Shown: in pieces, positions 21,931 to 36,539 of the stretch
How the letters are laid out: each line of letters starts with the position of its first letter
How positions within the stretch are numbered: the first letter of the stretch is position 1
DNA from: a virus
Direction: 5' to 3' (one strand)
Length of the DNA: 41,634 nt
Virus record (IMG/VR): IMGVR_UViG_3300009285_000027
Translations under genes and position numbers: made by a program
The notes under the pieces: generated by a model
What the model was told of the DNA's origin: nothing
Seen by the model: the letters and a program-made list of their open reading frames with translations, nothing else
Database searches by the model: none

Positions 21931-23112
21931 ATGGCTGTAAAAGATTCAACCCGCACACAGGCAAGCGCATTCGAGAGCGACGACTTTTTTCGCGGCGTAA
22001 AAAATCGCGGCACAAGTCCAGCTACACAAATCTTCTCACGCGCAGTAATAAAAACCTATTTCGACACGGTCTACCAGCCAGTTGGTTACCCAGCGGGTCA
22101 TCTGTTCGGCATGAAAATCTCGAATAACGCCTCAGACCCGACGAATGATATTGACATTGCAGTCGGCCAATGTAGGGATAGAGCCAATACAGCAGACATG
22201 GCGCTAACAACCGCGCTCACTGGCAAACAGTTAGACGTTGCCTGGGCGGTGGGGTCGTCTGCTGGATTTTTGGATCAAGGCTCGATTGCAAACGCAACCT
22301 ATCACGTGCATTGCATCAAACGTTCCGATACCGGCGTGGTCGATGCGATTGCGTCTCTCTCGCACGATGAGAGCGCAGTCATCACCATGACTATTGCCTC
22401 CCCCGCCGTTGTAACGTGGGGTGTGGCTGGAAACGGGCATGGATTAGTAGCGGGTTCGCCTGTGAAATTTTCGACTACCGGCGCGCTCCCAACAGGCGTT
22501 ACGGCGGGAACGCAATATTATGTTATCGCCACTGGATTGACTGAAACCGCTTTTCAATTTTCAACCTCCAACGGCGGCGCGGCAGTTAATACCAGCGGCA
22601 CGCAATCGGGAGTACATACGGGATTACCAGGCCCGAAGTTACCAACGAGCTACGATTCGTTTCGACGTATCGCGTCGATCGTTAGAACTGGATCGGCTAT
22701 CAAACCGTTTGTACAGTCTGGTGACAAGTTTGCATGGAAAGTCCCTGTAACAGATGTCAATGCAACCGCTCCAGGAACCGCGGCGGTAACGCGTACACTT
22801 ACCATTCCAACGGGACTGAGGATCGAAGGGATTGTGTCTGTGATTGGTGCGAGCAATTCAGGCGTTGCCGATAATCCGCAGGGCATCTTGATCACCGACC
22901 TCCTACAAACCGACACAACGCCAACCTACCCGCTCAACTTGTTTTATTCATATAGCGGCGCGGCGTTCCCGATGTTTACGAGCAGCGCAGACATAAGGGT
23001 ATTTGCGAACCGCTCCGCACAGGTGCGGAGCAGGGTTGAGATTTCAGCCGCAGCGACCATCCTTATAATCAATACGCATGGATGGATCGATACGCGCGGG
23101 CGGCTGGAGTGA
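21931..23112 (+). CDS. Putative tail fibre / receptor-binding protein
   Basis: 393-aa Gly/Thr/Ala-rich ORF, last tail-module gene. RBS GGAGATGAC. Confidence 0.55.
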   Translation: MAVKDSTRTQASAFESDDFFRGVKNRGTSPATQIFSRAVIKTYFDTVYQPVGYPAGHLFGMKISNNASDPTNDIDIAVGQCRDRANTADMALTTALTGKQLDVAWAVGSSAGFLDQGSIANATYHVHCIKRSDTGVVDAIASLSHDESAVITMTIASPAVVTWGVAGNGHGLVAGSPVKFSTTGALPTGVTAGTQYYVIATGLTETAFQFSTSNGGAAVNTSGTQSGVHTGLPGPKLPTSYDSFRRIASIVRTGSAIKPFVQSGDKFAWKVPVTDVNATAPGTAAVTRTLTIPTGLRIEGIVSVIGASNSGVADNPQGILITDLLQTDTTPTYPLNLFYSYSGAAFPMFTSSADIRVFANRSAQVRSRVEISAAATILIINTHGWIDTRGRLE

Positions 23113-28064: not shown

Positions 28065-28520
28065 ATGACTTACGACAGCGAGAAGGATACGAGAGAACAC
28101 ATCCGGCACGTTGACCATTTCATGAAGGAAATCTTCTTCAAGTTGCTTGACCGAAAAGAAAAGCACGACGCAAGCAAGTTGGAGCAACCCGAAAAGGAAA
28201 CGTACGACACTCTTGTACCCAGGCTCAAACTTTTGAAATATGGAAGTCCTGAGTACGAGGCGCTTCTAAAGGAAATGAAACCCGCGCTTGCTCATCACTT
28301 CGCAAACAACCGTCATCACCCGGAACACTTCGAGAACGGCATTGACGATATGACCTTAGTAGACGTTGTGGAAATGTTTTGTGATTGGATGGCCGCAAGC
28401 ATCAGAAGCGATACAGGATTTTCAAAAGGTTTAGAGGTGAACAAAAAGCGTTTCAATATGTCTGACCAACTTTACAGGATATTTGCCAATACCGCTAAAG
28501 AACTCGGCTGGTATGAATAA
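28065..28520 (+). CDS. DUF5662-like helical (HD-like) protein
   Basis: ORF 28050..28520. The ATG at 28065 follows GAAAGGAAA. Motifs HIRHV...KHDASK...YGSPEY...LAHHFANNRHHPEHF match my recollection of the DUF5662 family. Confidence 0.6.
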   Translation: MTYDSEKDTREHIRHVDHFMKEIFFKLLDRKEKHDASKLEQPEKETYDTLVPRLKLLKYGSPEYEALLKEMKPALAHHFANNRHHPEHFENGIDDMTLVDVVEMFCDWMAASIRSDTGFSKGLEVNKKRFNMSDQLYRIFANTAKELGWYE

Positions 28521-28678
28521 AACGGATATTTGTTTGGAGACTGCATGAAACTAACCGCTCTTGGAGTGAAGACCTGGTGACGTATGACAACGTTATTTGT
28601 ATGACCCAACGCGTGGCGGCGGATGGCCGTAAACACAACGCCACCGATACTGACAGTAACGGTGTACAATATCAACAA

Positions 28679-28696
28679 CATCTCCGCGCGGAGATG
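28679..28696. promoter_or_regulatory. Perfect 18-bp palindrome catctccgc|gcggagatg
   Basis: Read directly. Lies 20 nt upstream of the ATG at 28717. Either an operator-like site or a short hairpin. Confidence 0.3.
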
Positions 28697-28716
28697 AATT
28701 AGTAAAAGGAGATCAT

Positions 28717-28950
28717 ATGCAGTACACTCCGAGACCTGAGGACTTCGAGAAACTTGAGAACAACTTTAAGTATCATGCGCCGAAGCCTGACCAACCCGAA
28801 CGCTATGAGGCAATTCGAGCGAAGGCAAAGGAATTTGCTGAGTTGCTTGTGAAAAATTGCCCGCCTAGCCGCGAGTTATCGGTGTCCCTCACCGAACTTG
28901 AAACGTCAGTTATGTGGGCAAATGCATCAATTGCCCGTAACGAAAAGTAA
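28717..28950 (+). CDS. Small helical-hairpin protein of a widespread phage family (possibly Acb2/Tad1-hairpin-like)
   Basis: 77 aa with AAAGGAGA RBS. Motif FKYHAP...ERYEAIRAKAKEFAELL...SRELSVSLTELETSVMWANASIA. The family assignment is from memory and unverified. Confidence 0.6.
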   Translation: MQYTPRPEDFEKLENNFKYHAPKPDQPERYEAIRAKAKEFAELLVKNCPPSRELSVSLTELETSVMWANASIARNEK

Positions 28951-28964
28951 AAGGAGAATTCTCA

Positions 28965-29171
28965 ATGAATAAGTTTTTGTCAGTTGTGGCGGCGTTGCCG
29001 TTGCCAATCCCCCTGTTTCTGCTGGCCGTGACGTTCATCTATGGCCTGTTGAAATATTTCTTCCCCGATCTGCCGTTCACGCAGGAGCAGATTCAGTACG
29101 TGCTTGAGCAGTTACTCGCACTTTTCGGCATCGTCCTGACTGCCCAGTTGCGAACGCGAGGCGTCTTGTAA
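28965..29171 (+). CDS. Small membrane protein, last rightward gene
   Basis: 68 aa with AAAGGAGA RBS and two hydrophobic helices. Confidence 0.5.
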   Translation: MNKFLSVVAALPLPIPLFLLAVTFIYGLLKYFFPDLPFTQEQIQYVLEQLLALFGIVLTAQLRTRGVL

Positions 29172-29199
29172 CAGACAACGCGGCTCCGATAGAAAAATG

Positions 29200-29237
29200 G
29201 AAACCTCCCGACTTCTGCTTTCGAGTCGGGAGGTTTC
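29200..29237. terminator. Bidirectional intrinsic terminator at the convergence of the two arms
   Basis: gaaacctcccgact (29200-29213) pairs with agtcgggaggtttc (29224-29237), a perfect 14-bp stem. The minus strand continues CAUUUUUCU and the plus strand ends in UUUCGUU. Confidence 0.8.
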
Positions 29238-29252
29238 GTTAGGAGGAGAGCC

Positions 29253-29378
29253 GCACAACGGCTTGCGTTACTGGCTTTGCGGTAGCCCGCAGTGCCGACA
29301 CAATTTACTAACCTCATTCGCCGGCTCGAACTTTTCGCAGGTGCATACCAGCAAAGTCCGCTGCACGCGGTGTTGGGC
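29253..29378 (-). mobile_element. attC-like site D (126 bp)
   Basis: The minus strand reads GCCCAAC-ACCGC-GTGCAGCGGAC ... GCCAGTAAC-GCAAGCC-GTTGTGC. The TAA stop of CDS 29268..29558 lies in the TAAC box. The 5' half pairs with the 3' half (CUUUGC/GCAAAG). Confidence 0.7.
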
Positions 29379-29558
29379 GGCGCGGCCTTGCTCCTCAACT
29401 TCGTATTGATAGAAACCGAGACAGCCGCCGACATTTCCAGCCAGTGAGCCACGCTTTATTTCTTTCGCAGCATCACGCACCAACGCGGCGATGTCTTCAA
29501 TCTCGTCGGCGTAGACAGTTAGGGTGAGTTTCAACTCTGCGTTTTCAACAATTGCCAT
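29268..29558 (-). CDS. Cassette ORF, hypothetical (C-terminal CxC...CxxC encoded by the attC-like element)
   Basis: 96-aa ORF. The last ~37 codons are read from attC-like site D. Confidence 0.6.
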   Translation of the reverse strand: MAIVENAELKLTLTVYADEIEDIAALVRDAAKEIKRGSLAGNVGGCLGFYQYEVEEQGRAAQHRVQRTLLVCTCEKFEPANEVSKLCRHCGLPQSQ

Positions 29559-29584
29559 AATACACTTTCCTTTCTTTATCTACC

Positions 29585-29603
29585 ATAGAACGGCTTGTGT
29601 TAC
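29585..29603 (-). mobile_element. Degenerate attC 3' half-site G
   Basis: The minus strand reads GGGTAAC-ACAAGCC-GTTCTAT. The stop of CDS 29600..29827 lies in the TAAC box. No matching RYYYAAC was found upstream. Confidence 0.35.
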
Positions 29604-29827
29604 CCGTGGCGGCGTACTCCTATCCACGGATAACTCATATAAAAAGTTTCAATCTCTGGATCATTGTGGCATAGTTTTGTAAATATTCTGCCATCTTTCC
29701 CTGTTTCAATATCGAAGCATGAAAATCTACCAGCCGCTAAAACTGCCGCTTTGATATTTTTATACGTGCGCCTCTTGCCGCGCAAATCAGACACGGTGTC
29801 AAAACTATCTAAATATATAACGCTCAT
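29600..29827 (-). CDS. Cassette ORF, hypothetical
   Basis: ORF 29600..29851. The ATG at 29827 follows GAAAGAAAGG. Confidence 0.55.
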   Translation of the reverse strand: MSVIYLDSFDTVSDLRGKRRTYKNIKAAVLAAGRFSCFDIETGKDGRIFTKLCHNDPEIETFYMSYPWIGVRRHG

Positions 29828-29857
29828 TTTGCCTTTCTTTCGGACAGCCACGAAGCC

Positions 29858-29963
29858 ACCTAACGGCTTGTATTACCCGCGAGTGGGCGGGATAAACTTT
29901 CAGACTAGATAAATGCCTGCAAACGGAGAGCATACCCATCATCCGCTGCACGCATTGTTAGGC
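29858..29963 (-). mobile_element. attC-like site E (106 bp, fully intergenic)
   Basis: The minus strand reads GCCTAAC-AATGC-GTGCAGCGGAT ... CCCGCCCACTCGCGGGTAAT-ACAAGCC-GTTAGGT. It starts 3 nt after the TAG of CDS 29967..30185. Confidence 0.75.
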
Positions 29964-29966
29964 GTG

Positions 29967-30185
29967 CTAATTTCCTTCAAGATACAAATAAGACTTTTCC
30001 TTGCGCTTATTTTCTTCACTCATGGTTGGATGTGAGCGCATTATCCAGCCACCTTCGTTTTCGACTCCCTGAACAACATGCCATTCATCTTCTGAAATAA
30101 TTTCATAATCGCTATAGCGACCATTCAGGATTTCCATATCATCAGGATATTGTTCCAACATCTTTTTCAATTGACCTACGTTCAT
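29967..30185 (-). CDS. Cassette ORF, hypothetical acidic protein
   Basis: ORF 29967..30188. The ATG at 30185 lies 7 nt after AAAGGAGA. Confidence 0.6.
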   Translation of the reverse strand: MNVGQLKKMLEQYPDDMEILNGRYSDYEIISEDEWHVVQGVENEGGWIMRSHPTMSEENKRKEKSYLYLEGN

Positions 30186-30209
30186 CACGTTTCTCCTTTC
30201 GCAAGAAAA

Positions 30210-30335
30210 CGACTAACGGCTTGCGTTAGCGGCAGGGCGAACAGATAGAGCAATATAAATTGCCATGTTCGTCCATCTTGAAAGCCGCACTGTTTACGTG
30301 GGTGCAAGCCCCGTCGGCTGCACGCGGTGTTAGAA
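30210..30335 (-). mobile_element. attC-like site C (126 bp)
   Basis: The minus strand reads TTCTAAC-ACCGC-GTGCAGCCGACGG ... GCCGCTAAC-GCAAGCC-GTTAGTC. The TAA of CDS 30226..30477 lies in the TAAC box. Confidence 0.75.
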
Positions 30336-30477
30336 GGCATCTCTCGCATTTCACCTTCTTGGGGGCAACTTTGCAATAGCGATACACTTCATGACCACAT
30401 TCAAGTTTCAACATGCGACCATAGCTATCACCATAAGATACTGACAAAACCTTTGAGTAATTTCTGTAATCTGACAT
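30226..30477 (-). CDS. Cassette ORF, zinc-ribbon-like small protein
   Basis: 83 aa with CGH...C, CERC and CSICSPC. The C-terminal ~36 codons are read from attC-like site C. Confidence 0.6.
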   Translation of the reverse strand: MSDYRNYSKVLSVSYGDSYGRMLKLECGHEVYRYCKVAPKKVKCERCLLTPRAADGACTHVNSAAFKMDEHGNLYCSICSPCR

Positions 30478-30484
30478 AGATGCC

Positions 30485-30554
30485 TTCTAACGGTTTGCGT
30501 TACTGGCGCAAGCCTTATAAGTTTATTTTTCACGCGCCTTGCGGCGGGTTGATC
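30485..30554 (-). mobile_element. attC-like site F (70 bp)
   Basis: The minus strand reads GATCAAC-CCGCCGCAAGGCGCG ... GGCTTGCGCCAGTAAC-GCAAACC-GTTAGAA. The internal dyad GCCGCAAGGC / GGCTTGCGCC pairs at 8 of 10 positions. Confidence 0.6.
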
Positions 30555-30834
30555 CGCATATCGCACACGTAACGGCATCTGTGCCGATCAAAGCATACTC
30601 CGCACCACAATCGGCACAAACCGGCTGCCGCGCGCTGGGATGGGCGGCCTCTGCTTCTTTGATTGCATTGTAAACCGCCTCGTAGGCGCGATTGTATATG
30701 TCTGTAAATTCCGCGCTCGGCCACGGAAGATGCCGTGCGATGGCATCACGTACTGGCGCCATAAACTTTTCGACGCGCTGATCACCCTCCCACCATGGTT
30801 TTATCGGGACTGTTACAGCCTCGTCTTTTTTCAT
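30523..30834 (-). CDS. Hypothetical protein with C-terminal zinc ribbon
   Basis: 103 aa with CADCG...CAICG and ATGA overlap to the upstream gene. Confidence 0.6.
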   Translation of the reverse strand: MKKDEAVTVPIKPWWEGDQRVEKFMAPVRDAIARHLPWPSAEFTDIYNRAYEAVYNAIKEAEAAHPSARQPVCADCGAEYALIGTDAVTCAICGSTRRKAREK

Positions 30835-31163
30835 TTCGTCTCCGTTCTGTTTGGGCGTGTGTTCTTTGACATTAGTTTTATCTGTTCTCTCTTATCGTTG
30901 AAGTATTTCAGTGCTTCCGGAATTCGATGAAACCAGCGCGGCAAAATTCGGTAGGGGTTGGGCGGAGTTATCAAACCCAGTGCGTTCAATATCTTTTCGT
31001 CTTGTGGAACGTAGTTTGCATCATCCACAAAACGCTGGAGAGTTCCAAACTTTATCTCTCCGCCGTAGTAGTCACGAGCGATGACGCGGTAGGATTTCAC
31101 GACCTTATGCAGGCGGCGCAGCTGTGACTTTGCTTTCCTGATTTTGGCTTTAGACGGTTTCAT
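30831..31163 (-). CDS. Hypothetical basic protein
   Basis: 110-aa Lys/Arg-rich ORF. Confidence 0.55.
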   Translation of the reverse strand: MKPSKAKIRKAKSQLRRLHKVVKSYRVIARDYYGGEIKFGTLQRFVDDANYVPQDEKILNALGLITPPNPYRILPRWFHRIPEALKYFNDKREQIKLMSKNTRPNRTETK

Positions 31164-31264
31164 TTGGTGGCGGCTTTCCGTATATGTTTTTTAGTAGCTC
31201 ACGCAGGTGTCACGGGCGGTGACGGGCATTGTAATTCTGGTTGTGCGACCCCAAAACGCCCGTT

Positions 31265-31387
31265 TCACTTCTTCGGCGGCTTGCGTAGGTCGCGCCAGGC
31301 GATGTACGCCAGGGCGCACGCGATCCCGGCCACAACCCATGCGACCTGTGCGCATAACTCCCAACCACGAGTGATACTGTCATCCAT
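31265..31387 (-). CDS. Possible 40-aa single-TM peptide (below the ORF-track cutoff)
   Basis: ATG (rc of 31385-31387) to TGA (31265-31267), giving MDDSITRGWELCAQVAWVVAGIACALAYIAWRDLRKPPKK. More protein-like than the overlapping Arg-rich 66-aa track ORF 31210..31410. Confidence 0.35.
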   Translation of the reverse strand: MDDSITRGWELCAQVAWVVAGIACALAYIAWRDLRKPPKK

Positions 31388-31395
31388 TTTTGTCT

Positions 31396-31429
31396 CACTT
31401 TTTCACTCACTTGTCACTTCACTTCACTT
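31396..31429. repeat. Cluster of cactt pentamers (five copies, three in tandem at 31415-31429)
   Basis: Read directly. On the gene-sense strand it is a purine-rich AAGTG array just upstream of the small TM ORF. Confidence 0.8.
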
Positions 31430-31480
31430 CGCTTTTTCGCTTTACGGGTAAATCTGCATTCCAGGCGTGTAAATAATATG

Positions 31481-32032
31481 TCAGTGGGGGATAGGCGGTA
31501 AAGGATTTCCATTGGCAATCTTACGCACAAGTTTCCAGTCCCCTACCGTATCGGGAGAGTTTGCGTGTTCGGATTTGCGGAACAACGCGCCGTAGTGCCT
31601 CCACTTGTTCTTGAGTTCTACAAACTCAGAGCGCGGAAACTTCCCTGACTTGACCCAGAAACCCTCAGTCGTATCAACCTTGTCCAAGCCCCAGTCACTC
31701 CGCATCTGAATTAGCGTGCGCGCAAATCCGCGTTCCTTGTCGAATTTTACAAGGTCAACCGTCATTTGATTTACGACGCCATTGATGCGGACTGGCGGCA
31801 TGATGCGTTGGGCGGGCCGCTTGGGAGCCTCTGGCGCGTGTGATGTGTATTCAAGGTCTGACTTCTCAGCTCGCAGTAAAAAGATTGCATGACAGCAAGC
31901 GACAAAGCCGAAACCAAAGTAAATGGAGTAACTGAACCACGGAGACCACTTACCGCCAAAGTTGTAAACCAAATAGACGCCTGCTAACAGGCTTGCATTT
32001 GGAAACAACCAGTAGTAATGCTGGACATACAT
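31481..32032 (-). CDS. Membrane protein (two N-terminal TM helices + soluble C-terminal domain)
   Basis: 183 aa with TAATG overlap to the upstream gene. Confidence 0.65.
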   Translation of the reverse strand: MYVQHYYWLFPNASLLAGVYLVYNFGGKWSPWFSYSIYFGFGFVACCHAIFLLRAEKSDLEYTSHAPEAPKRPAQRIMPPVRINGVVNQMTVDLVKFDKERGFARTLIQMRSDWGLDKVDTTEGFWVKSGKFPRSEFVELKNKWRHYGALFRKSEHANSPDTVGDWKLVRKIANGNPLPPIPH

Positions 32033-32283
32033 TACACGTCTCTCACTTGTTCGCGTCTCAGAATGATCGGCCCTTCCCCTTTCGACACATTACCGTGATA
32101 GCGATTGATATAGACTCGGAGTGTGCCGTCGGGCTGCTCGTAATATTTGCAATCATACGCGGCGATCCCCATGTCGCGCGTTTCTTTATCGTAGATCACG
32201 TTCCCATTTTTCAACATTCGGTTGACGCCGATAATGGTGATCGTGTCGATGGGGATTAGATCATCGCCTACAATCTCAGGCAT
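32032..32283 (-). CDS. Hypothetical protein
   Basis: ORF 32032..32394. The ATG at 32283 overlaps the upstream TAA (TAATG). Confidence 0.55.
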   Translation of the reverse strand: MPEIVGDDLIPIDTITIIGVNRMLKNGNVIYDKETRDMGIAAYDCKYYEQPDGTLRVYINRYHGNVSKGEGPIILRREQVRDV

Positions 32284-32420
32284 TATCTTTTTCTCAACAC
32301 AATCAGGAAGAACACAATCACAGCGGCAACGATTGGTAACGCCGCATCTCCAATCTCGACCCACTGTGCAACCACGATAATGGAAGAACCGCACGCGAAG
32401 ATGAAAGCAATGATGAGCAT
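32283..32420 (-). CDS. 45-aa double-TM mini-protein
   Basis: ORF 32283..32522. The ATG at 32420 follows AGGAA. Sequence MLIIAFIFACGSSIIVVAQWVEIGDAALPIVAAVIVFFLIVL. Confidence 0.45.
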   Translation of the reverse strand: MLIIAFIFACGSSIIVVAQWVEIGDAALPIVAAVIVFFLIVLRKR

Positions 32421-32448
32421 GATTCCTGCAATTCTGTTCCTGGACACG

Positions 32449-32565
32449 TTACGCCTCCGTGAAAATCTTCCACGCCCACCACAACAAAAACAGGAGTCCC
32501 GGAACTGTGAGCACAACGACAAGTAGAATTTCTCTGACGCGAGTAACCTTGTTTTTATCCATCAT
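32449..32565 (-). CDS. 38-aa single-TM mini-protein (below the ORF-track cutoff)
   Basis: ATGATG start (rc of 32560-32565) overlapping the upstream stop. Sequence MMDKNKVTRVREILLVVVLTVPGLLFLLWWAWKIFTEA. Confidence 0.35.
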   Translation of the reverse strand: MMDKNKVTRVREILLVVVLTVPGLLFLLWWAWKIFTEA

Positions 32566-32758
32566 TCACATCCTTGAAATAATAGCCTGGGTCGTCCTGC
32601 ATCGGCGGCGTTTCGTGCGGCTCAGCGGGAGTGTGGTCCGAGTGAAACCAGATGGGTGGCAGTGGCACGATGCCTTTCCGCCACAGAAACGAAATCAGGA
32701 TAGCGGCGATGAGGCCGAATACAAAAAACAGAATGGAGGCGTTCTCGGGATTACTCAT
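32555..32758 (-). CDS. 67-aa single-TM protein
   Basis: ATGA overlap to the upstream gene. TM segment ILFFVFGLIAAILISFLW. Confidence 0.5.
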   Translation of the reverse strand: MSNPENASILFFVFGLIAAILISFLWRKGIVPLPPIWFHSDHTPAEPHETPPMQDDPGYYFKDVNDG

Positions 32759-32967
32759 TTTGACCTGATGAAATTGATGCTGTTATCTTCTTCGTCAATC
32801 ACAACCTTTTCAACCCGGCCTGCACGATACGCCTGTTCAATTTCGCGCCTTACGCGGCGGGATGATCTCCGATTGATTTTCCATACTGCAAAACGCGAAC
32901 TGCCTTTTAATAAAATAAATGTGGCAGTAAAAAACAAAATACCAAATGGAAGGAACGAGTCTATCAT
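32755..32967 (-). CDS. 70-aa single-TM protein
   Basis: ATGA overlaps. TM segment FLPFGILFFTATFILL followed by a basic tail. Confidence 0.5.
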   Translation of the reverse strand: MIDSFLPFGILFFTATFILLKGSSRFAVWKINRRSSRRVRREIEQAYRAGRVEKVVIDEEDNSINFIRSK

Positions 32968-33164
32968 TGGTTGCGTTCCGTCTCATGCAGATGCAGAGTA
33001 CACACGTCATACCACCACTGCATAATGGCATTTTTCGCCTTACGCCCAACGTTATTCTCAATTTCACTCTCTGATGCGTTTGCGACAGCTTCAAAAAAAG
33101 TCTCGCGTTCTTTTGCAGGCAGATTGTCTTCCGAGTTTATAGCGGTCAACAGTTTCGTAAACAT
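32964..33164 (-). CDS. Hypothetical small protein
   Basis: 66-aa ORF with GGAAAGGA upstream of the ATG. Confidence 0.55.
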   Translation of the reverse strand: MFTKLLTAINSEDNLPAKERETFFEAVANASESEIENNVGRKAKNAIMQWWYDVCTLHLHETERNQ

Positions 33165-33175
33165 GCTTATATCCT

Positions 33176-33195
33176 TTCCAACGGTCTCGGTTAGC
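33176..33195 (-). mobile_element. Degenerate attC 3' half-site H
   Basis: The minus strand reads GCCGCTAAC-CGAGACC-GTTGGAA. The TAA of CDS 33191..33400 lies in the TAAC box. Confidence 0.35.
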
Positions 33196-33400
33196 GGCTC
33201 TTCTTGTAGCGGGAATTACGAATGTCATCCATGTCCATTGCATGGATTTCGCCACCACCTTGTTGAGTGGCTTCACGAACTCGCTCGATAGTATGATTGA
33301 GGTTGATGACGGCTGCGCCAAGATAGTTTTGCGCTCTCTCGTCTCCAATTTTCACAACACGCAATTTTTCTACAATACTCATCAATTCATCAAGATACAT
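33191..33400 (-). CDS. Hypothetical small helical protein
   Basis: ORF 33191..33457. The ATG at 33400 follows GAGGAGG. Confidence 0.6.
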   Translation of the reverse strand: MYLDELMSIVEKLRVVKIGDERAQNYLGAAVINLNHTIERVREATQQGGGEIHAMDMDDIRNSRYKKSR

Positions 33401-33420
33401 TTTGCCTCCTCGGGCGAATC

Positions 33421-33615
33421 GCCCAACGGTTTGCGTTACTGGCGGGGCTTTCTGCAATAAAAACAGTGGTCAAGATGCTTACTATTGACCTCTTTACAAT
33501 GTTTGCATCTCCAATACAACGGAAAGAATAATAGTCTGAGCAGCCAATCAATCATTAGATTCATCGTTTTCTGCTGATGCAGCTTGCCTGCCGTCTGGTG
33601 CACGCGGTGTTAGGC
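33421..33615 (-). mobile_element. attC-like site B (195 bp, unusually long centre)
   Basis: The minus strand reads GCCTAAC-ACCGC-GTGCACCAGACGG ... CCCCGCCAGTAAC-GCAAACC-GTTGGGC. The AT-rich centre includes the hairpin GGTCAA/TTGACC followed by TGTTTTTATT. Confidence 0.6.
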
Positions 33616-34219
33616 AGCCCCACTGCTGCGCCATTGCACCTGCTATGGAATCAAACGATATGGAGCGATTTTTTTCGCCATGATTAGCTTCTGTAAAATA
33701 ACGCTTCTTGGCTCTTGGTGTATTATCAATATAGGTTGGCTCTGGATAATCTGTCATCGTTTTCTTTCCAAATAAATCATCTTCTTTCCACCACCATAAT
33801 TTAGGTAAGTTCTTTAGCCAAAGGCATGTACGCTTTAATTGACGCTCACCAAAATAATAGGGGTGAATTATCTGATCTGGTTTCCTGTAAACTTTACCTG
33901 GATACCCTACGGGATTTTCAATGCACGCCATTGGTATGTTGCAATTCACAAATAGCATAAAAAACTTCATGGCTTCTTCTCGTAGCTCAACTCTACCTGG
34001 TTTGTTCCAAACGTGGTTAGCTGCGTAACTTAGATAAGTGCAAGGCGGGTGAGCAATGAGCAAATCCCAATTTTCAAAAAGGATGTCTCGCACATCACCC
34101 TGATAGTGATTGCCAGGTGTTTCACTCTCGCGGAAGTCGCATGACCAAGCATCATGTCCCCGAGCCGCGAAAGCGCTCCTGATCGTTCCCGTGAATTCAC
34201 ACGCTACTAAGATACGCAT
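33548..34219 (-). CDS. DNA cytosine-C5 methyltransferase-like protein (phage ACEF...PPCT type)
   Basis: MRILVACEFTGTIRSAF (motif I-like) and IAHPPCTYLS (PC motif). Confidence 0.7.
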   Translation of the reverse strand: MRILVACEFTGTIRSAFAARGHDAWSCDFRESETPGNHYQGDVRDILFENWDLLIAHPPCTYLSYAANHVWNKPGRVELREEAMKFFMLFVNCNIPMACIENPVGYPGKVYRKPDQIIHPYYFGERQLKRTCLWLKNLPKLWWWKEDDLFGKKTMTDYPEPTYIDNTPRAKKRYFTEANHGEKNRSISFDSIAGAMAQQWGCLTPRAPDGRQAASAENDESND

Positions 34220-34226
34220 AGAGGTT

Positions 34227-34353
34227 GCCTAACGGCTTGCGTTACCCGCAAGTGGCGGGCGTAGCATCTTCCCAAAGAATAGAATCACCTTCAGGGTGGA
34301 TAAGATAATTTTGGCGGGCGAATCCCACTTGTCGGGTGGACGCTGTGTTAGAT
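34227..34353 (-). mobile_element. attC-like site A (127 bp)
   Basis: The minus strand reads ATCTAAC-ACAGC-GTCCACCCGAC ... CGCCCGCCACTTGCGGGTAAC-GCAAGCC-GTTAGGC. The TAA of CDS 34242..34985 lies in the TAAC box. The next ATG (34219) is 8 nt after the core. Confidence 0.75.
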
Positions 34354-34985
34354 GCGGTAATGCCTTCAAGCGCGTCAAGGATTTCGCACCACAGATCGAG
34401 CGGGACTACTGCGCGTTCAGCCGCGCCAGATAAACCCTGTACCCCTGTTTGAGACCCACGCGGGGCGGACTCGTGACACTTGCGCCCATTCTTGCAAATC
34501 GGACGAGGCGACCAGCCAGGGACAAATCCCCAAAGATCGGTCGGCTTCATGTTCTTATCACCATACTGGCAATAAGTGATCGTTGTTCGTGGTAGAGTTT
34601 TCATAAATGGCAACTTACGTAATACTCCGCGTGGATTTTCGATAATGAAGGCTTTAGGTTTCATGTCTCGGATAATTTGCAAGGTATGCTTGACCAACCT
34701 TTGAGACAATTCAGCGTGTGGCGTTTTTGGAATATACGCTCTCGCACCACCACCCCAATGATGCCCCATTGCCGCAACACTAAACGCTTCACATGGCGGG
34801 GATGCCCACACAAAATCGAAATATCCGAACTTCTCTGCTGTCATTTCAAAAATATCAGCCGTTATTGTGCAGTTAAATTCTGGCACATAATCAAGCGTGA
34901 TGTATTCATGCCCGCGTTGTTCTATAAACGCGCGTCTTTGATTGCCACCAATGCCAGCGAACAGATCAAGGATTTTCATAAGCAT
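34242..34985 (-). CDS. DNA (cytosine-5)-methyltransferase
   Basis: Motif I DLFAGIGG, motif IV SPPCEAFS, ENPRG, and a C-terminal AVVPLDLW motif X-like segment. The start is ATG 34985 or 34979. The last ~40 codons are read from attC-like site A. Confidence 0.85.
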   Translation of the reverse strand: MLMKILDLFAGIGGNQRRAFIEQRGHEYITLDYVPEFNCTITADIFEMTAEKFGYFDFVWASPPCEAFSVAAMGHHWGGGARAYIPKTPHAELSQRLVKHTLQIIRDMKPKAFIIENPRGVLRKLPFMKTLPRTTITYCQYGDKNMKPTDLWGFVPGWSPRPICKNGRKCHESAPRGSQTGVQGLSGAAERAVVPLDLWCEILDALEGITASNTASTRQVGFARQNYLIHPEGDSILWEDATPATCG

Positions 34986-35001
34986 CTAACTACTGCGTAA
35001 G
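34984..35001 (-). mobile_element. Core-site-containing half-site I (5' boundary of the first methyltransferase cassette)
   Basis: The minus strand reads CGCTTAC-GCAGTA-GTTAGAT, and the GTTAGATG core overlaps the ATG at 34985. No RYYYAAC partner was found upstream. Confidence 0.45.
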
Positions 35002-35045
35002 CGGACGGTTTCCGCATAAGACACCGCCGGGGGACAAAAAGCCGC

Positions 35046-35486
35046 CTAGCATTCCCGCTCCGCGACCAGCGCACGGAGGTCTATCACTGACCACTTCCAT
35101 TTCTTCGGCATCGCTAGTTCCGTCAATTCCACCATGACGCTTTCACCGTAAGTTTTGAGCATGTAGTTATCATAATAATAATGCCAGTGGTTGTGCGCGC
35201 CGTTGCAGGTTGAGCATTGGCAATTACAATTTCTTAGATCGTACCGAATGCGCTGTTTGCCCGCTGGTATCCAATGACTAATCGTCAAACCTTCCGTTGC
35301 CCCGCAGGTGACACAGCAACCATCACGGGCTTTCACAAAATCGGCTGTCAGATTCCATAGTTTCTCTTCCAGTTGACGACGTTCCGATTTTGAACGGCGG
35401 CGCTTCTGCTTCTTTTGCTTCACCGGCTTGGGTTTACCGATGATGGTCATAACTTCGTGGTGTTGCGCGGCGCGGAGGGTATTCAT
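35046..35486 (-). CDS. ninG: NinG/Rap-like structure-specific (HNH-like) endonuclease
   Basis: Basic N-terminus, then CCVTCG...SHW...RIRYDLRN...CQCSTCN, matching the lambda NinG pattern C-x2-CG...H...R(F/Y)..RN...QC..CN. Confidence 0.65.
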   Translation of the reverse strand: MNTLRAAQHHEVMTIIGKPKPVKQKKQKRRRSKSERRQLEEKLWNLTADFVKARDGCCVTCGATEGLTISHWIPAGKQRIRYDLRNCNCQCSTCNGAHNHWHYYYDNYMLKTYGESVMVELTELAMPKKWKWSVIDLRALVAEREC

Positions 35487-36112
35487 TTACATCTTCCACA
35501 TTCGCAGGCGGGCGGAACCTTCGCGTCAATCGCGGCGAGAATGGCCTTCGCGTCAATCGCGGCGAGAATGGCCTTCGCTTTATTCTCCGCTTTCTCTGCC
35601 TGCCGTTCGTTGTACATGACGGGAATAACAAGGTGCTCGTATGTCTCACGGCAGCGGTAGACAGTGAAACATTGCCGCCAACCGCCGTAACGCATGTAAA
35701 GTTGGACCTGAATGAAATGCTTGTAGGAGGCCTTCATTTCCTTGCGGATACGCTCGAACTTGTCCACGGTCAACGATTTGATCTCCAGCAGGTCGTTATC
35801 CAGGGTCAACCCGTCGATGTGACCACACAGGCGGTCATCAAACGGGGCGATCACGCCGTATCCATTATCCATACAGCCGATACCTGATTTTTGCAGGAGC
35901 GACAAAACGCTCCGCTCCTGCTCATATCCTGCAAAGCAAAAACGATGCGTGGCTTCTGAGATTTCCCCTACGCCGTCAAAATATTCGTTGTACGCCGCGC
36001 GTGGGCAACCTGATATTTTGGAAATGCCGAGATACTCTCGGTGCTGATCCAGTCCGCTATTTGCGGCGATCTGCTGAGTGAGTGTATTTTGAATTTCGTT
36101 TACAGTTGTCAT
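35483..36112 (-). CDS. PD-(D/E)XK nuclease, Cas4/RecB-like with putative Fe-S cysteines
   Basis: Catalytic-type motif GHIDG...LEIKS. One N-terminal Cys (GCPRAAY) plus a C-terminal CECGRC cluster. Confidence 0.7.
   Translation of the reverse strand: MTTVNEIQNTLTQQIAANSGLDQHREYLGISKISGCPRAAYNEYFDGVGEISEATHRFCFAGYEQERSVLSLLQKSGIGCMDNGYGVIAPFDDRLCGHIDGLTLDNDLLEIKSLTVDKFERIRKEMKASYKHFIQVQLYMRYGGWRQCFTVYRCRETYEHLVIPVMYNERQAEKAENKAKAILAAIDAKAILAAIDAKVPPACECGRCK
35518..35578. repeat. Perfect 27-bp tandem duplication (2.3 copies), in frame, inside the nuclease gene
   Basis: ccttcgcgtcaatcgcggcgagaatgg occurs at 35518-35544 and 35545-35571, then ccttcgc. Encodes AILAAIDAK twice. Confidence 0.95.
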
Positions 36113-36303
36113 TCTTTCACCACAATCAGCGGAATAGCTGGAAAGTGATAGTTGCGATATGGCTTGCCAGTCTTGCCATTGATGCGGACCTCGAAGATGT
36201 CGCGTACATCTACAATCGTTACATGCTTGCCGCGTATCCGCATGAGCGAAATTATGCGTCGCTTACGCCGAATGGTTGTACCGCAGTGGGGGCATTTCAT
36301 CAC
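36109..36303 (-). CDS. Small zinc-ribbon protein
   Basis: 64 aa with CPHCG at the N-terminus and ATGA overlaps. Confidence 0.55.
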   Translation of the reverse strand: MMKCPHCGTTIRRKRRIISLMRIRGKHVTIVDVRDIFEVRINGKTGKPYRNYHFPAIPLIVVKE

Positions 36304-36539
36304 TTATCCCTCAATACAAGTTTGACAGTAAATTTGCCCTTCACAAAATCTGCGAACTCCACACGATATGACATCCCATTTAACTCCACGTTCAGTCCCG
36401 CCTTCGGGAGTTTTGAAATTGTATGAGATGTAGCCCCTTTCTCTTCGGCTGATTTGATTTTTGCGGTCAAATCGGCAATGTTTGAAAGGTCAATTTCGCT
36501 CAATTGCTTGATGTTACCTAATTCATCTCTGCTTTGCAT
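36300..36539 (-). CDS. Hypothetical small protein
   Basis: ORF 36300..36593. The ATG at 36539 follows AAAGGAGTAAAC. Confidence 0.55.
   Translation of the reverse strand: MQSRDELGNIKQLSEIDLSNIADLTAKIKSAEEKGATSHTISKLPKAGLNVELNGMSYRVEFADFVKGKFTVKLVLRDK

Follow-up and report, generated by a model that had tools for sequence, protein, structure and literature searches.

The two methyltransferase genes considered here are, with a probability that we put at roughly 85%, integron-type gene cassettes that lie in the minus-strand non-structural block of a tailed phage and form part of a CALIN, that is, a group of clustered attC sites with no integrase. The window, by which is meant the whole stretch of DNA that was analysed (41,634 nucleotides; IMG/VR record IMGVR_UViG_3300009285_000027), represents a tailed phage and bears genes for TerS, TerL, a portal, a major head protein, a tape measure and an endolysin. 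A preliminary description had packaged each gene as a cassette of about 756 or 806 bp, with a core site on the 5' side and an attC-like element on the 3' side, and this interpretation, now resting on an attC model and on exact boundaries, proves largely right. Both ORFs exist and match phrog_757, the cassettes measure 757 and 806 bp, and the proposed 3' bounds are found as a full attC (site A) and as both halves of an atypical one (site B); the 5' core site of cassette 1, on the other hand, is not a full attC (Table 1).

Table 1. Features of the two methyltransferase (MTase) cassettes and their attC sites, in window positions.
Feature	Position	Strand	Remarks
Cassette 1 (MTase 1 + attC site A)	34233..34989	-	757 bp, crossover to crossover
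5' core site of cassette 1, R'-type GTTAGAT	34984..34990	-	crossover between G 34990 and TT 34989-34988
MTase 1 ORF, C5-cytosine-methyltransferase-like	34242..34985	-	247 aa as the longest ORF
attC site A	34224..34353	-	127-130 bp; covariance model
Site A boxes R'' and L''	R'' ATCTAAC 34347-34353; L'' 34331-34343	-	
Site A boxes L' and R'	L' CGGGTAACGC 34239-34248; R' GTTAGGC 34227-34233	-	
Cassette 2 (MTase 2, small zinc-ribbon ORF, attC-like site B)	33427..34232	-	806 bp
MTase 2 ORF, 223 aa	33548..34219	-	distant paralogue of MTase 1, 28% identity (pairwise)
attC-like site B	33418..33615	-	R'' to R' about 195 bp; centre enlarged (about 130 nt)
Site B left half	33586-33615	-	R'' GCCTAAC 33609-33615, with L''
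Site B right half, L'-R'	33418-33454	-	R' GTTGGGC 33421-33427
Putative 42-codon ORF inside site B	33436..33564	-	zinc-ribbon pattern W-x-C-x2-C-x3-N-x6-C-x2-C

The covariance model used to recognise attC sites was built only from 80 repeats in cassette arrays of Anaerolineae (Chloroflexota), and these repeats are true attC sites. The bacterial elements are about 130 bp long, present an R box, a spacer and a bulged L box, show compensatory change in 10 of 20 pairs, and are arrayed on one strand, spaced about 650-1100 bp apart where the arrays are densest. Some of the arrays are adjoined by integron integrases that point away from them (ORFs L183:2133-3107 and L228:3878-4864, scoring 455-479 bits against TIGR02249, for which the cutoff is 265). 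Among the genome matches listed for a 21-nt pattern, 72 of 80 titles belong to Anaerolineae and other Chloroflexota.

Site A is an attC site. It matches the bacterial model over its full length with 81.8 bits (E 1e-18), the best score in the window, of which only the left half and the pairing count as independent evidence, because the search pattern that yielded the bacterial sites came from the phage motif and the right half of the model is thus partly circular. All 20 modelled pairs are standard, half-site matrices score the left side at 29.9 bits and the right at 33.3 bits, R'' and R' fit the core consensus RYYYAAC / GTTRRRY, and the L'' arm aligns to the consensus extrahelical bases (alignment columns 15-16 and 22 unpaired). 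Among the attC sites linked to MTase 1, compensatory change is seen in 15 of 31 pairs, pairing having been kept despite the sites being translated. Model support, whose lack had beforehand been named as counting against the cassettes, thus extends to site A as a whole and to both halves of site B.

MTase 1 matches phrog_757, annotated as DNA methyltransferase, at E 5e-24, and PF00145 with 39.3 bits (cutoff 22), a match confined to the N-terminal 116 of the model's 324 positions; its score of 34.7 bits against TIGR00675 lies under the cutoff of 100.65, and a comparison of its sequence with solved structures gave no match. The protein displays SPPCEAFS as motif IV (Pro-Cys), IIENPRG as motif VI (Glu-Asn-Val/Pro) and a clear motif I, LFAGIGG, and by family membership it is predicted to be a C5-cytosine DNA methyltransferase. 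Translation probably starts at the ATG at 34979, giving 245 residues as in its homologues. MTase 2 matches phrog_757 more strongly (E 7e-50) and has no Pfam or NCBIfam match; it bears HPPCTYLS (IV) and CIENPVG (VI) with a degenerate motif I, and its family membership suggests that it, too, is a DNA methylase.

Both reading frames continue into the attC sites that follow them. In MTase 1 the segment EILDAL runs to residue 206 of 247 and codon 211 is the first of the attC match, such that residues from about 207-211 to 247 (36-41 codons) are encoded by site A, and the TAA stop (34242-34244) is the TAA of the site A L' box (GGGTAACGC). Homologues of MTase 1 are of two classes, one of 245 residues that has the tail and another of about 207 residues that covers 83% of the query. 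MTase 2 reaches R'' with codon 200 of its 223 and takes its last 24 codons from the R''/L'' half of site B, and its homologues are similar over residues 1 to about 201-212 and no further. Since homologues devoid of attC end where attC begins, the C-terminal 36-41 codons of MTase 1 and 24 codons of MTase 2 are read from attC DNA, in keeping with earlier estimates of about 40 and 20 codons. Such an arrangement is rare in sedentary chromosomal integrons, where the TAA of L' closes a frame of at least 100 codons in only 3 of 302 bacterial array sites, whereas in the phage the ORFs run into attC.

The 5' end of cassette 1, GTTAGATGC, is the exact reverse complement of the R'' flank of site A, GCATCTAAC, and in L120, L121 and L268 the equivalent pair is GTTAGGTGC with GCACCTAAC, both sides being changed relative to the window in a compensatory manner. 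The R'' flank of cassette 2, GGCTGCCTAAC, read directly, complements its 5' end at 10 of 11 positions. In the bacterial arrays, a cassette's own 5' end and R'' match at 7.15 of 9 positions on average versus 5.14 of 9 for random pairs. This complementarity of a 5' end to its own R'' is a trace of the circular cassette form. In a circular form of cassette 1 the junction would read ...AAGCCG joined to TTAGATGCTTATG.

The ends of the cassettes are also visible in other contigs. The preliminary description had called for presence or absence exactly at the core sites, and limits of homology were found at such sites in L120, L121, L268, L244, L271/L272 and L243. Alignments of cassette 1 to homologous contigs break at G|TT, with blastn homology to L120, L121 and L268 confined to 34216/34227-34992/35004. 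Nucleotide homology to L244 starts at 34233, with the common cassette 2 5' end GTTAGGCAACC; L271 and L272 share the same methyltransferase and attC, identical up to GTT and divergent thereafter; and L243 carries an MTase 2 homologue, 78% identical and without attC, in which the similarity ends immediately ahead of R''. L244 and L268 have a 61-nt segment in common, a candidate attI. Cassette 1 has its 5' core site in a degenerate stretch, L'-R'-like, that follows the stop codon of NinG; the site matches neither the covariance model nor the half-site matrices, and the stretch upstream of MTase 1 is partly homologous to backbone sequence of a NinG relative.

The same cassettes have been exchanged among different contexts. 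The unit of methyltransferase plus attC, at 85% amino acid identity, recurs in dense arrays, where 5-6 kb hold 10-13 attC sites (L271, L272, L275); the methyltransferase-bearing dense arrays L271-L275 are short metagenome contigs with no integrase on them. Identical cassettes with different neighbours in L271-L274 point to recent movement of the MTase 1 cassette family. In the phage-like contig L120 the cassette lies in an array adjoined by an endolysin. When the other array ORFs of the window were compared with all fetched loci (BLASTP), only the two methyltransferases were shared as cassettes.

Less regular is the site that closes cassette 2. Half-site matrices give its left and right halves 28.3 and 28.8 bits (best shuffle 2.4), R'' GCCTAAC and R' GTTGGGC fit the same core consensus as site A, and the whole-site model recovers the right half only (33418-33507; 7.5 bits, E 1.7). 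Its L-box stem, read by hand, has two mismatches, and DNA fold prediction returned no long-range fold for the site (z -0.26). The usual length of an attC is about 57-141 bp, a range that site A falls within and that site B, at about 195 bp, exceeds. The 42-codon ORF inside its enlarged centre ends at the TAA of the site B L' and has no family match. Site B is atypical and may be inactive.

An irregular site of this kind bears on whether the cassettes were captured in the past and are now fixed, their attC sites being kept mainly as coding tails that no longer recombine in the phage, a reading to which we give distinctly less than even odds. It would fit a window without IntI, an enlarged and mismatched site B, further window sites present as half-sites only, and the position of all five full attC sites of the window partly or wholly within ORFs; the MTase 1 homologue of L122 likewise has a decayed attC (no R'', an 18-nt deletion, degenerate L' and R'), of which the tail is translated nonetheless. 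Against it stand the intact pairs of site A, the compensatory changes in the attC sites linked to MTase 1, the covariation of 5' end and R'', and the identical cassettes found beside different neighbours in L271-L274.

Sites A and B belong to a longer series. A 15-nt core (plus strand AACGGYTTGCGTTAC) occurs in eight copies in the window at no more than 3 mismatches, a number reached by none of 100 shuffles, and seven of these copies lie between 29257 and 34245, all on one strand. With the bacterial attC model, four full sites including site A are found in the window, all on the minus strand and with E values from 1e-18 to 9e-11; besides site A, attC sites lie at 29250-29378, 29855-29963 and 30208-30335, and half-site matrices place five left halves and five strong right halves in alternation along the array region. 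Half-sites only are present at 29589 and 33178, along with a 42-nt site at 30482-30523. A scan of 28500-36500 against Rfam gave no match at E <= 1; to our knowledge, Rfam holds no attC family. Bottom-strand folding energies of the attC sites (z -0.05 to -2.3) are barely past those of shuffles, and single-site DNA folding is consequently not useful as stand-alone evidence.

Repeats of this sort might instead be regulatory elements of the phage unrelated to integrons, such as 'stoperator' operators, processing sites or weak terminators, and indeed a conserved 20-nt core stands between genes, always oriented with transcription, its TAA serving as the stop of the upstream ORF in 5 of 7 window copies and 53 of 89 viral-contig copies. 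This core is, however, the L'-spacer-R' half of a 130-bp element, the other half of which is also in the window; the same element is arrayed beside integron integrases in bacteria, and homology breaks at G|TT, which leaves a purely regulatory origin scarcely credible. The local core hairpin (TAACG/CGTTA or CTTGCG/CGCAAG) shows, by eye, no compensatory change across the window copies. A stand-alone 20-nt 'stoperator' or processing site was rejected as a candidate, since the genome scan shows the motif to be one half, the right one, of the 130-bp attC that recurs in integron arrays of bacteria. A regulatory side effect of attC hairpins on transcription or translation is possible.

Phage genes enclose the array as a whole: upstream, NinG along with a Cas4-like exonuclease and a replication O-like protein; downstream, a terminator (a hairpin after the last attC, near 29200-29240) followed by convergent plus-strand phage genes. 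This setting is pertinent to the suspicion that the window is a chimera of assembly, an array of bacterial cassettes having been fused to a phage genome by way of attC repeats, for short-read assemblers can be misled by repeats of this length (about 130 bp). Such an error is very improbable given phage genes on both sides of the array, attC copies that differ among themselves, and a G+C content of 0.47-0.50 in the array region that overlaps the low end of the 0.47-0.57 in the rest of the window; moreover, three independent assemblies (L276-L278) place an array with the methyltransferase cassette beside a homologue of window gene 21931..23112, and L268 and L120 have a like layout, with the array beside a phage gene. 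Megablast of 33100-35100 against GenBank phages gave no match, and a search for backbone relatives based on NinG found none in viral contigs and two 1-kb metagenome contigs only, with the result that no clean 'empty site' is demonstrable in a close relative of the phage.

The array is best described as a CALIN rather than a complete integron. The window holds no intI and attI adjoining the array: no IntI-like protein was found by phmmer on its ORFs or by six-frame search, no integrase is among the window ORFs that were scanned, and no attI was recognised. In a window lacking an integron integrase, any recombination would depend on a host enzyme, and none has been observed with this phage. Each cassette consists of a single promoterless ORF and an attC of the chromosomal integron family of Anaerolineae (Chloroflexota), and phage and bacteria thus appear to draw on a common pool of exchangeable genes. 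Most likely, an integron integrase provided by the host cell cut attC strands, in folded form, at G|TT and moved the cassettes between phage genomes and cassette arrays. The cassettes are oriented like the neighbouring genes and are therefore probably co-transcribed with these phage genes, and the enzymes would methylate cytosines of the phage DNA, blunting host restriction.

Several known systems resemble this arrangement in part. In the sedentary chromosomal integrons of bacteria, IntI and attI accompany long cassette arrays, in which the cassettes lack promoters and the attC sites are specific to the lineage. The window shares with them the R''-L''...L'-R' order, the bulged L box, the G|TT crossover, the size range of the cassettes and a 5' end complementary to its own R'', and departs from them in having neither IntI nor a recognised attI and in placing the array in a phage operon. 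The PeSLs of T4-type phages, reportedly described by Arbiol et al. in 2010 as 'mobile regulatory cassettes', are repeats that combine a promoter with a stem-loop and recombine by homology. They likewise set single phage genes between repeated short elements thought to permit modular shuffling, whereas here the repeated elements are attC sites of integrons, for which the crossover is defined as G|TT. Orphan phage methyltransferases, considered to act in anti-restriction, also have no partner endonuclease and lie in the non-structural gene block. Members of phrog_757 are common in viral contigs without any attC, and 23 of 25 MTase 2 relatives in viral contigs have no attC match at E <= 0.01; here, by contrast, an added attC has made the gene a cassette, and the proteins, whose activity is predicted, are unusually short at about 200-207 residues without the tail.

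The closest precedent is a study that described 17 phage CALINs, with five methyltransferase cassettes included, and showed that phage attC sites recombine with IntI1 (Qi et al. 2023, Front Microbiol, PMC9892861). Those elements, too, are attC sites and cassettes in phage genomes without an integron integrase, include methyltransferase cassettes, and led to the proposal that phages can draw on the cassette pool and obtain anti-restriction functions (Qi et al. 2023). They differ in the methyltransferases themselves (N6_N4_Mtase, Methyltransf_11, Methyltransf_16) and in their hosts (Tetrasphaera, Polaribacter, Pseudoalteromonas, Vibrio and others), compared with the Anaerolineae-type attC of the window; further, recombination was assayed experimentally by Qi et al. 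(2023), while the present case is known from sequence alone, and it is here that cassette ORFs read through attC and that the same cassette is traceable across many contexts. A phage CALIN with methyltransferase cassettes is therefore of a kind already known, of which the window is a well-documented new example; because that study came earlier, no new category is opened, and the preliminary description's 'new route' for phage anti-defence genes was overstated.

A broader proposition, which we hold only tentatively and consider rather unlikely, is that phages of Anaerolineae routinely use host integrons for gene exchange, such that phage CALINs and host chromosomal integrons make up one cassette pool. 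On this reading, typical phage genes such as the phrog_757 methyltransferases would become cassettes, and L243 set beside the window and L244, near-identical without and with attC, would record the step of attC addition. The phage attC would, on the same reading, serve both as a hairpin for recombination and as a C-terminal tail that is translated, and be constrained in both roles.

Integron cassettes are usually regarded as a reserve of adaptive genes kept by bacteria, and the anti-phage defences among them have been emphasised in recent work. The window represents the other side, a phage that holds predicted counter-defence genes in the same mobile format. The attC type offers a host prediction, Anaerolineae of the Chloroflexota, for an uncultured phage, and few phages of this group are known. 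Related methyltransferase genes occur with and without attC, with junctions visible on both sides, and the origin of a cassette can accordingly be examined in a concrete case. That the same cassette can be followed through many contexts with junctions exact to the base pair makes this unusually clean evidence of cassette traffic involving phages.

The window is a tailed-phage genome, whole or mostly so. Its plus strand encodes the small and large terminase subunits, portal, major head protein, tape measure and endolysin, while the part beyond about 29 kb carries minus-strand genes, among them those for a replication O-like protein, a Cas4-like exonuclease and NinG. The two predicted DNA methyltransferases, MTase 1 and MTase 2, are short, distant paralogues (28% identical) with Pro-Cys and Glu-Asn-Pro motifs in common in a pairwise alignment, motif I being degenerate in MTase 2. 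The PF00145 match of MTase 1 is above cutoff and covers the N-terminal third of the model only; MTase 2 has no match in curated protein families, and a sequence search of solved structures with MTase 1 returned no match. Judged by family membership, these enzymes would methylate the phage DNA and enable its escape from restriction. Within its 3' end, the Cas4-like exonuclease ORF carries two exact tandem copies of a 27-bp unit (CCTTCGCGTCAATCGCGGCGAGAATGG; 35518-35571), which encode the repeated peptide AILAAIDAK.

With up to three mismatches allowed, the window contains eight copies of a 15-nt core (plus strand AACGGYTTGCGTTAC), a number reached by no shuffle. Seven copies lie on one strand between 29257 and 34245, the ORF upstream often stops at the TAA of the core, and the same core is repeated in many IMG/VR contigs. 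A search with a 21-nt version of the motif, covering one genome per species, hit mainly Chloroflexota: 72 of the 80 titles listed, the majority Anaerolineae or Anaerolineales. Within these Chloroflexota genomes, copies line up on the same strand in arrays, as many as nine within 8 kb, and the densest arrays have gaps of about 650-1100 bp. The motif is the 3' terminus of a longer element, roughly 130 bp in length, which starts with GCCYAAC-AAAGCGTGCACC. Flanking the first box of each element stands the reverse complement of whatever comes after GTT in the element before it, which is the mark of integron cassettes. Alignment of 80 non-redundant elements reveals a fold with an R box, an unpaired spacer and a bulged L box, with compensatory change in 10 of 20 pairs, and integron integrases (TIGR02249; 455-479 bits, cutoff 265) adjoin the arrays of two comparison loci, L183 and L228, pointing away from them. 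Because of this fold, the compensatory change, the complementary flanks and the adjoining integrases, the bacterial repeats are Anaerolineae integron attC sites. In this type of attC the phage motif corresponds to the L'-spacer-R' half, and a first reading of the core as a short regulatory repeat was dropped on that account. Such integrases are present in some IMG/VR contigs too. No paper on Anaerolineae integrons as such was found in the open-access literature.

A covariance model trained solely on those 80 bacterial sites was then run on the window; as these sites had been retrieved with a phage-derived pattern, its right half is not independent, whereas its left half and pairing are. The model detects four full sites (see table), the best of which, site A behind MTase 1, looks intact, with every modelled pair standard. 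Of site B, the attC-like element behind MTase 2 (33418-33615), the full model finds the right half only (7.5 bits). With separate matrices for each half-site, 33586-33615 scores 28.3 bits and 33418-33454 scores 28.8 bits against a shuffle maximum of 2.4, and therefore site B has both halves. These stand about 130 nt apart versus the usual 70 or so, the L-box stem has two mismatches, and a 42-codon zinc-ribbon-like ORF occupies the centre. Like the half-sites at 29589 and 33178, site B looks degraded. By folding energies alone, the window sites are not distinguishable from shuffles. The preliminary description had placed both methyltransferase ORFs in attC-bounded cassettes, and the covariance model bears this out for site A, as do the half matrices for site B.

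Coordinates of the methyltransferase genes, their cassettes and the attC sites detected in the window
Feature	Coordinates	Strand	Remarks
MTase 1 ORF	34242..34985	minus	downstream of NinG; matches phrog_757 'DNA methyltransferase' and PF00145
MTase 2 ORF	33548..34219	minus	downstream of NinG; matches phrog_757 'DNA methyltransferase'
Cassette 1	34989..34233	minus	757 bp, crossover to crossover
Cassette 2	34232..33427	minus	806 bp, crossover to crossover
attC site A	34224-34353	minus	covariance model 81.8 bits, E 1e-18
Full attC	29855-29963	minus	covariance model, E within 6e-14 to 9e-11
Full attC	30208-30335	minus	covariance model, E within 6e-14 to 9e-11
Full attC	29250-29378	minus	covariance model, E within 6e-14 to 9e-11
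Miniature attC (42 nt)	30482-30523	minus	covariance model
L'-R' half-site	29589-29603	minus	

The second attC group (29250-30523, minus) lies at the end of the leftward operon and bounds small ORFs of 72-96 aa; a hairpin and T-run near 29200-29240 follow the last attC. A degenerate L'-R' site (GCTAACCGAGACCGTTGG, plus strand 33178-33198), with a possible R'' (CACTCAAC) close by near 33262-33274, follows the 71-aa ORF 33191..33406 (minus). This region would be a candidate third cassette with a decayed attC, its site (33175-33275) being detected by neither the covariance model nor the half-site matrices.

The cassette lengths given in the preliminary description hold when measured between crossovers, and homology to other loci breaks at the core sites. 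In three loci with MTase 1 homologues (L120, L121 and L268), nucleotide homology to the window is confined to 34216/34227-34992/35004, and in L244, with an MTase 2 homologue, it begins at 34233; the alignments break at GTT at the 5' boundary and directly past it at the 3' boundary. Likewise, L271 and L272 carry an identical methyltransferase and attC and differ from the first base past GTT. At its 5' end, cassette 1 carries GTTAGATGC, which complements the flank of the cassette's own R'' (GCATCTAAC) at every position; L120, L121 and L268 have GTTAGGTGC and GCACCTAAC instead, a joint change of the two partners. Across eight attC sites linked to MTase 1 homologues, two-sided change preserves the pairing in 15 of 31 predicted pairs, so the attC structure is conserved despite the DNA being translated.

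The otherwise unrelated contigs L268 (9933-9993) and L244 (5931-5991) have in common a 61-nt segment (80% identity) whose end coincides with the GTT before the first cassette, MTase 1 in the former and MTase 2 in the latter. It looks like an attI-type landing site; no integrase lies upstream of it in the fetched stretches (about 6 kb of L244 and 10 kb of L268). Window 34991-35045, which separates the NinG stop from the first core site, is partly homologous to L279:907-1034, a 1-kb metagenome contig on which a NinG (69% identical) precedes a small zinc-ribbon ORF whose start matches this stretch. The array may have inserted into, or replaced, a zinc-ribbon gene after NinG.

That the last codons of both genes (about 40 in MTase 1 and 20 in MTase 2) are read from attC DNA proved correct, since homologues free of attC end at the point where it begins. 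MTase 1 homologues fall into two classes, one of 245 aa covering the whole query and including a protein from an Anaerolineae MAG, the other of about 207 aa covering 83% of it; in MTase 1 itself, residue 206 is the last of 'EILDAL' and the attC match starts at codon 211. MTase 2 relatives align to residues 1 to about 201-212, and homology to L243 (78% identical, without attC) ends immediately ahead of R''. L122 has a decayed attC, yet its tail is still coding. The small minus-strand ORFs 29268..29558, 30226..30477 and 33436..33564 all end inside attC sites, with their last one or two Cys-x2-Cys (zinc-ribbon-like) motifs in the attC-encoded C-terminal stretch. In the bacterial arrays, the L' TAA closes a frame of at least 100 codons in only 3 of 302 sites, and the read-through therefore seems particular to phage-borne cassettes.

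The MTase 1 cassette (85% amino acid identity) also resides in dense arrays of 10-13 attC sites per 5-6 kb (L271, L272 and L275) and in phage-like contigs: beside an endolysin in L120, on an Anaerolineae MAG contig of small co-oriented genes (L268), and, in three independent assemblies (L276-L278), beside a homologue of window gene 21931..23112. No integron integrase is encoded in the window or in the fetched stretches of these loci. About 2 kb upstream of its attC array, L120, a 55-kb IMG/VR contig, bears a tyrosine-recombinase gene (601-1584; phrog_1 integrase, E 1e-38) that is not IntI-like by phmmer. In the viral contig L054 (7009-9776), four attC sites surround an MTase 2-like gene (41% identity) and adjoin an 813-aa phrog_56 methyltransferase.

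The gene flow of anti-defence functions by cassettes had been proposed as a new route, a novelty that is overstated: the acquisition of anti-restriction functions by phages as cassettes is a published idea, because integrons or CALINs (attC clusters lacking an integrase) were reported in 21 phages, with five methyltransferase cassettes and recombination by IntI1 of five of six phage attC sites (Qi et al. 2023; PMC9892861). What the present analysis adds is the Anaerolineae attC family, the C5-type phrog_757 methyltransferases in phage cassettes, the ORFs running through attC and the detailed comparative evidence. The integron-cassette interpretation is supported, with caveats, and the most economical reading of the window array is a CALIN in a phage of Anaerolineae. 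A host integron integrase would have moved the cassettes, which would be expressed within the leftward phage operon; the hairpin and T-run past the last attC would terminate this operon.
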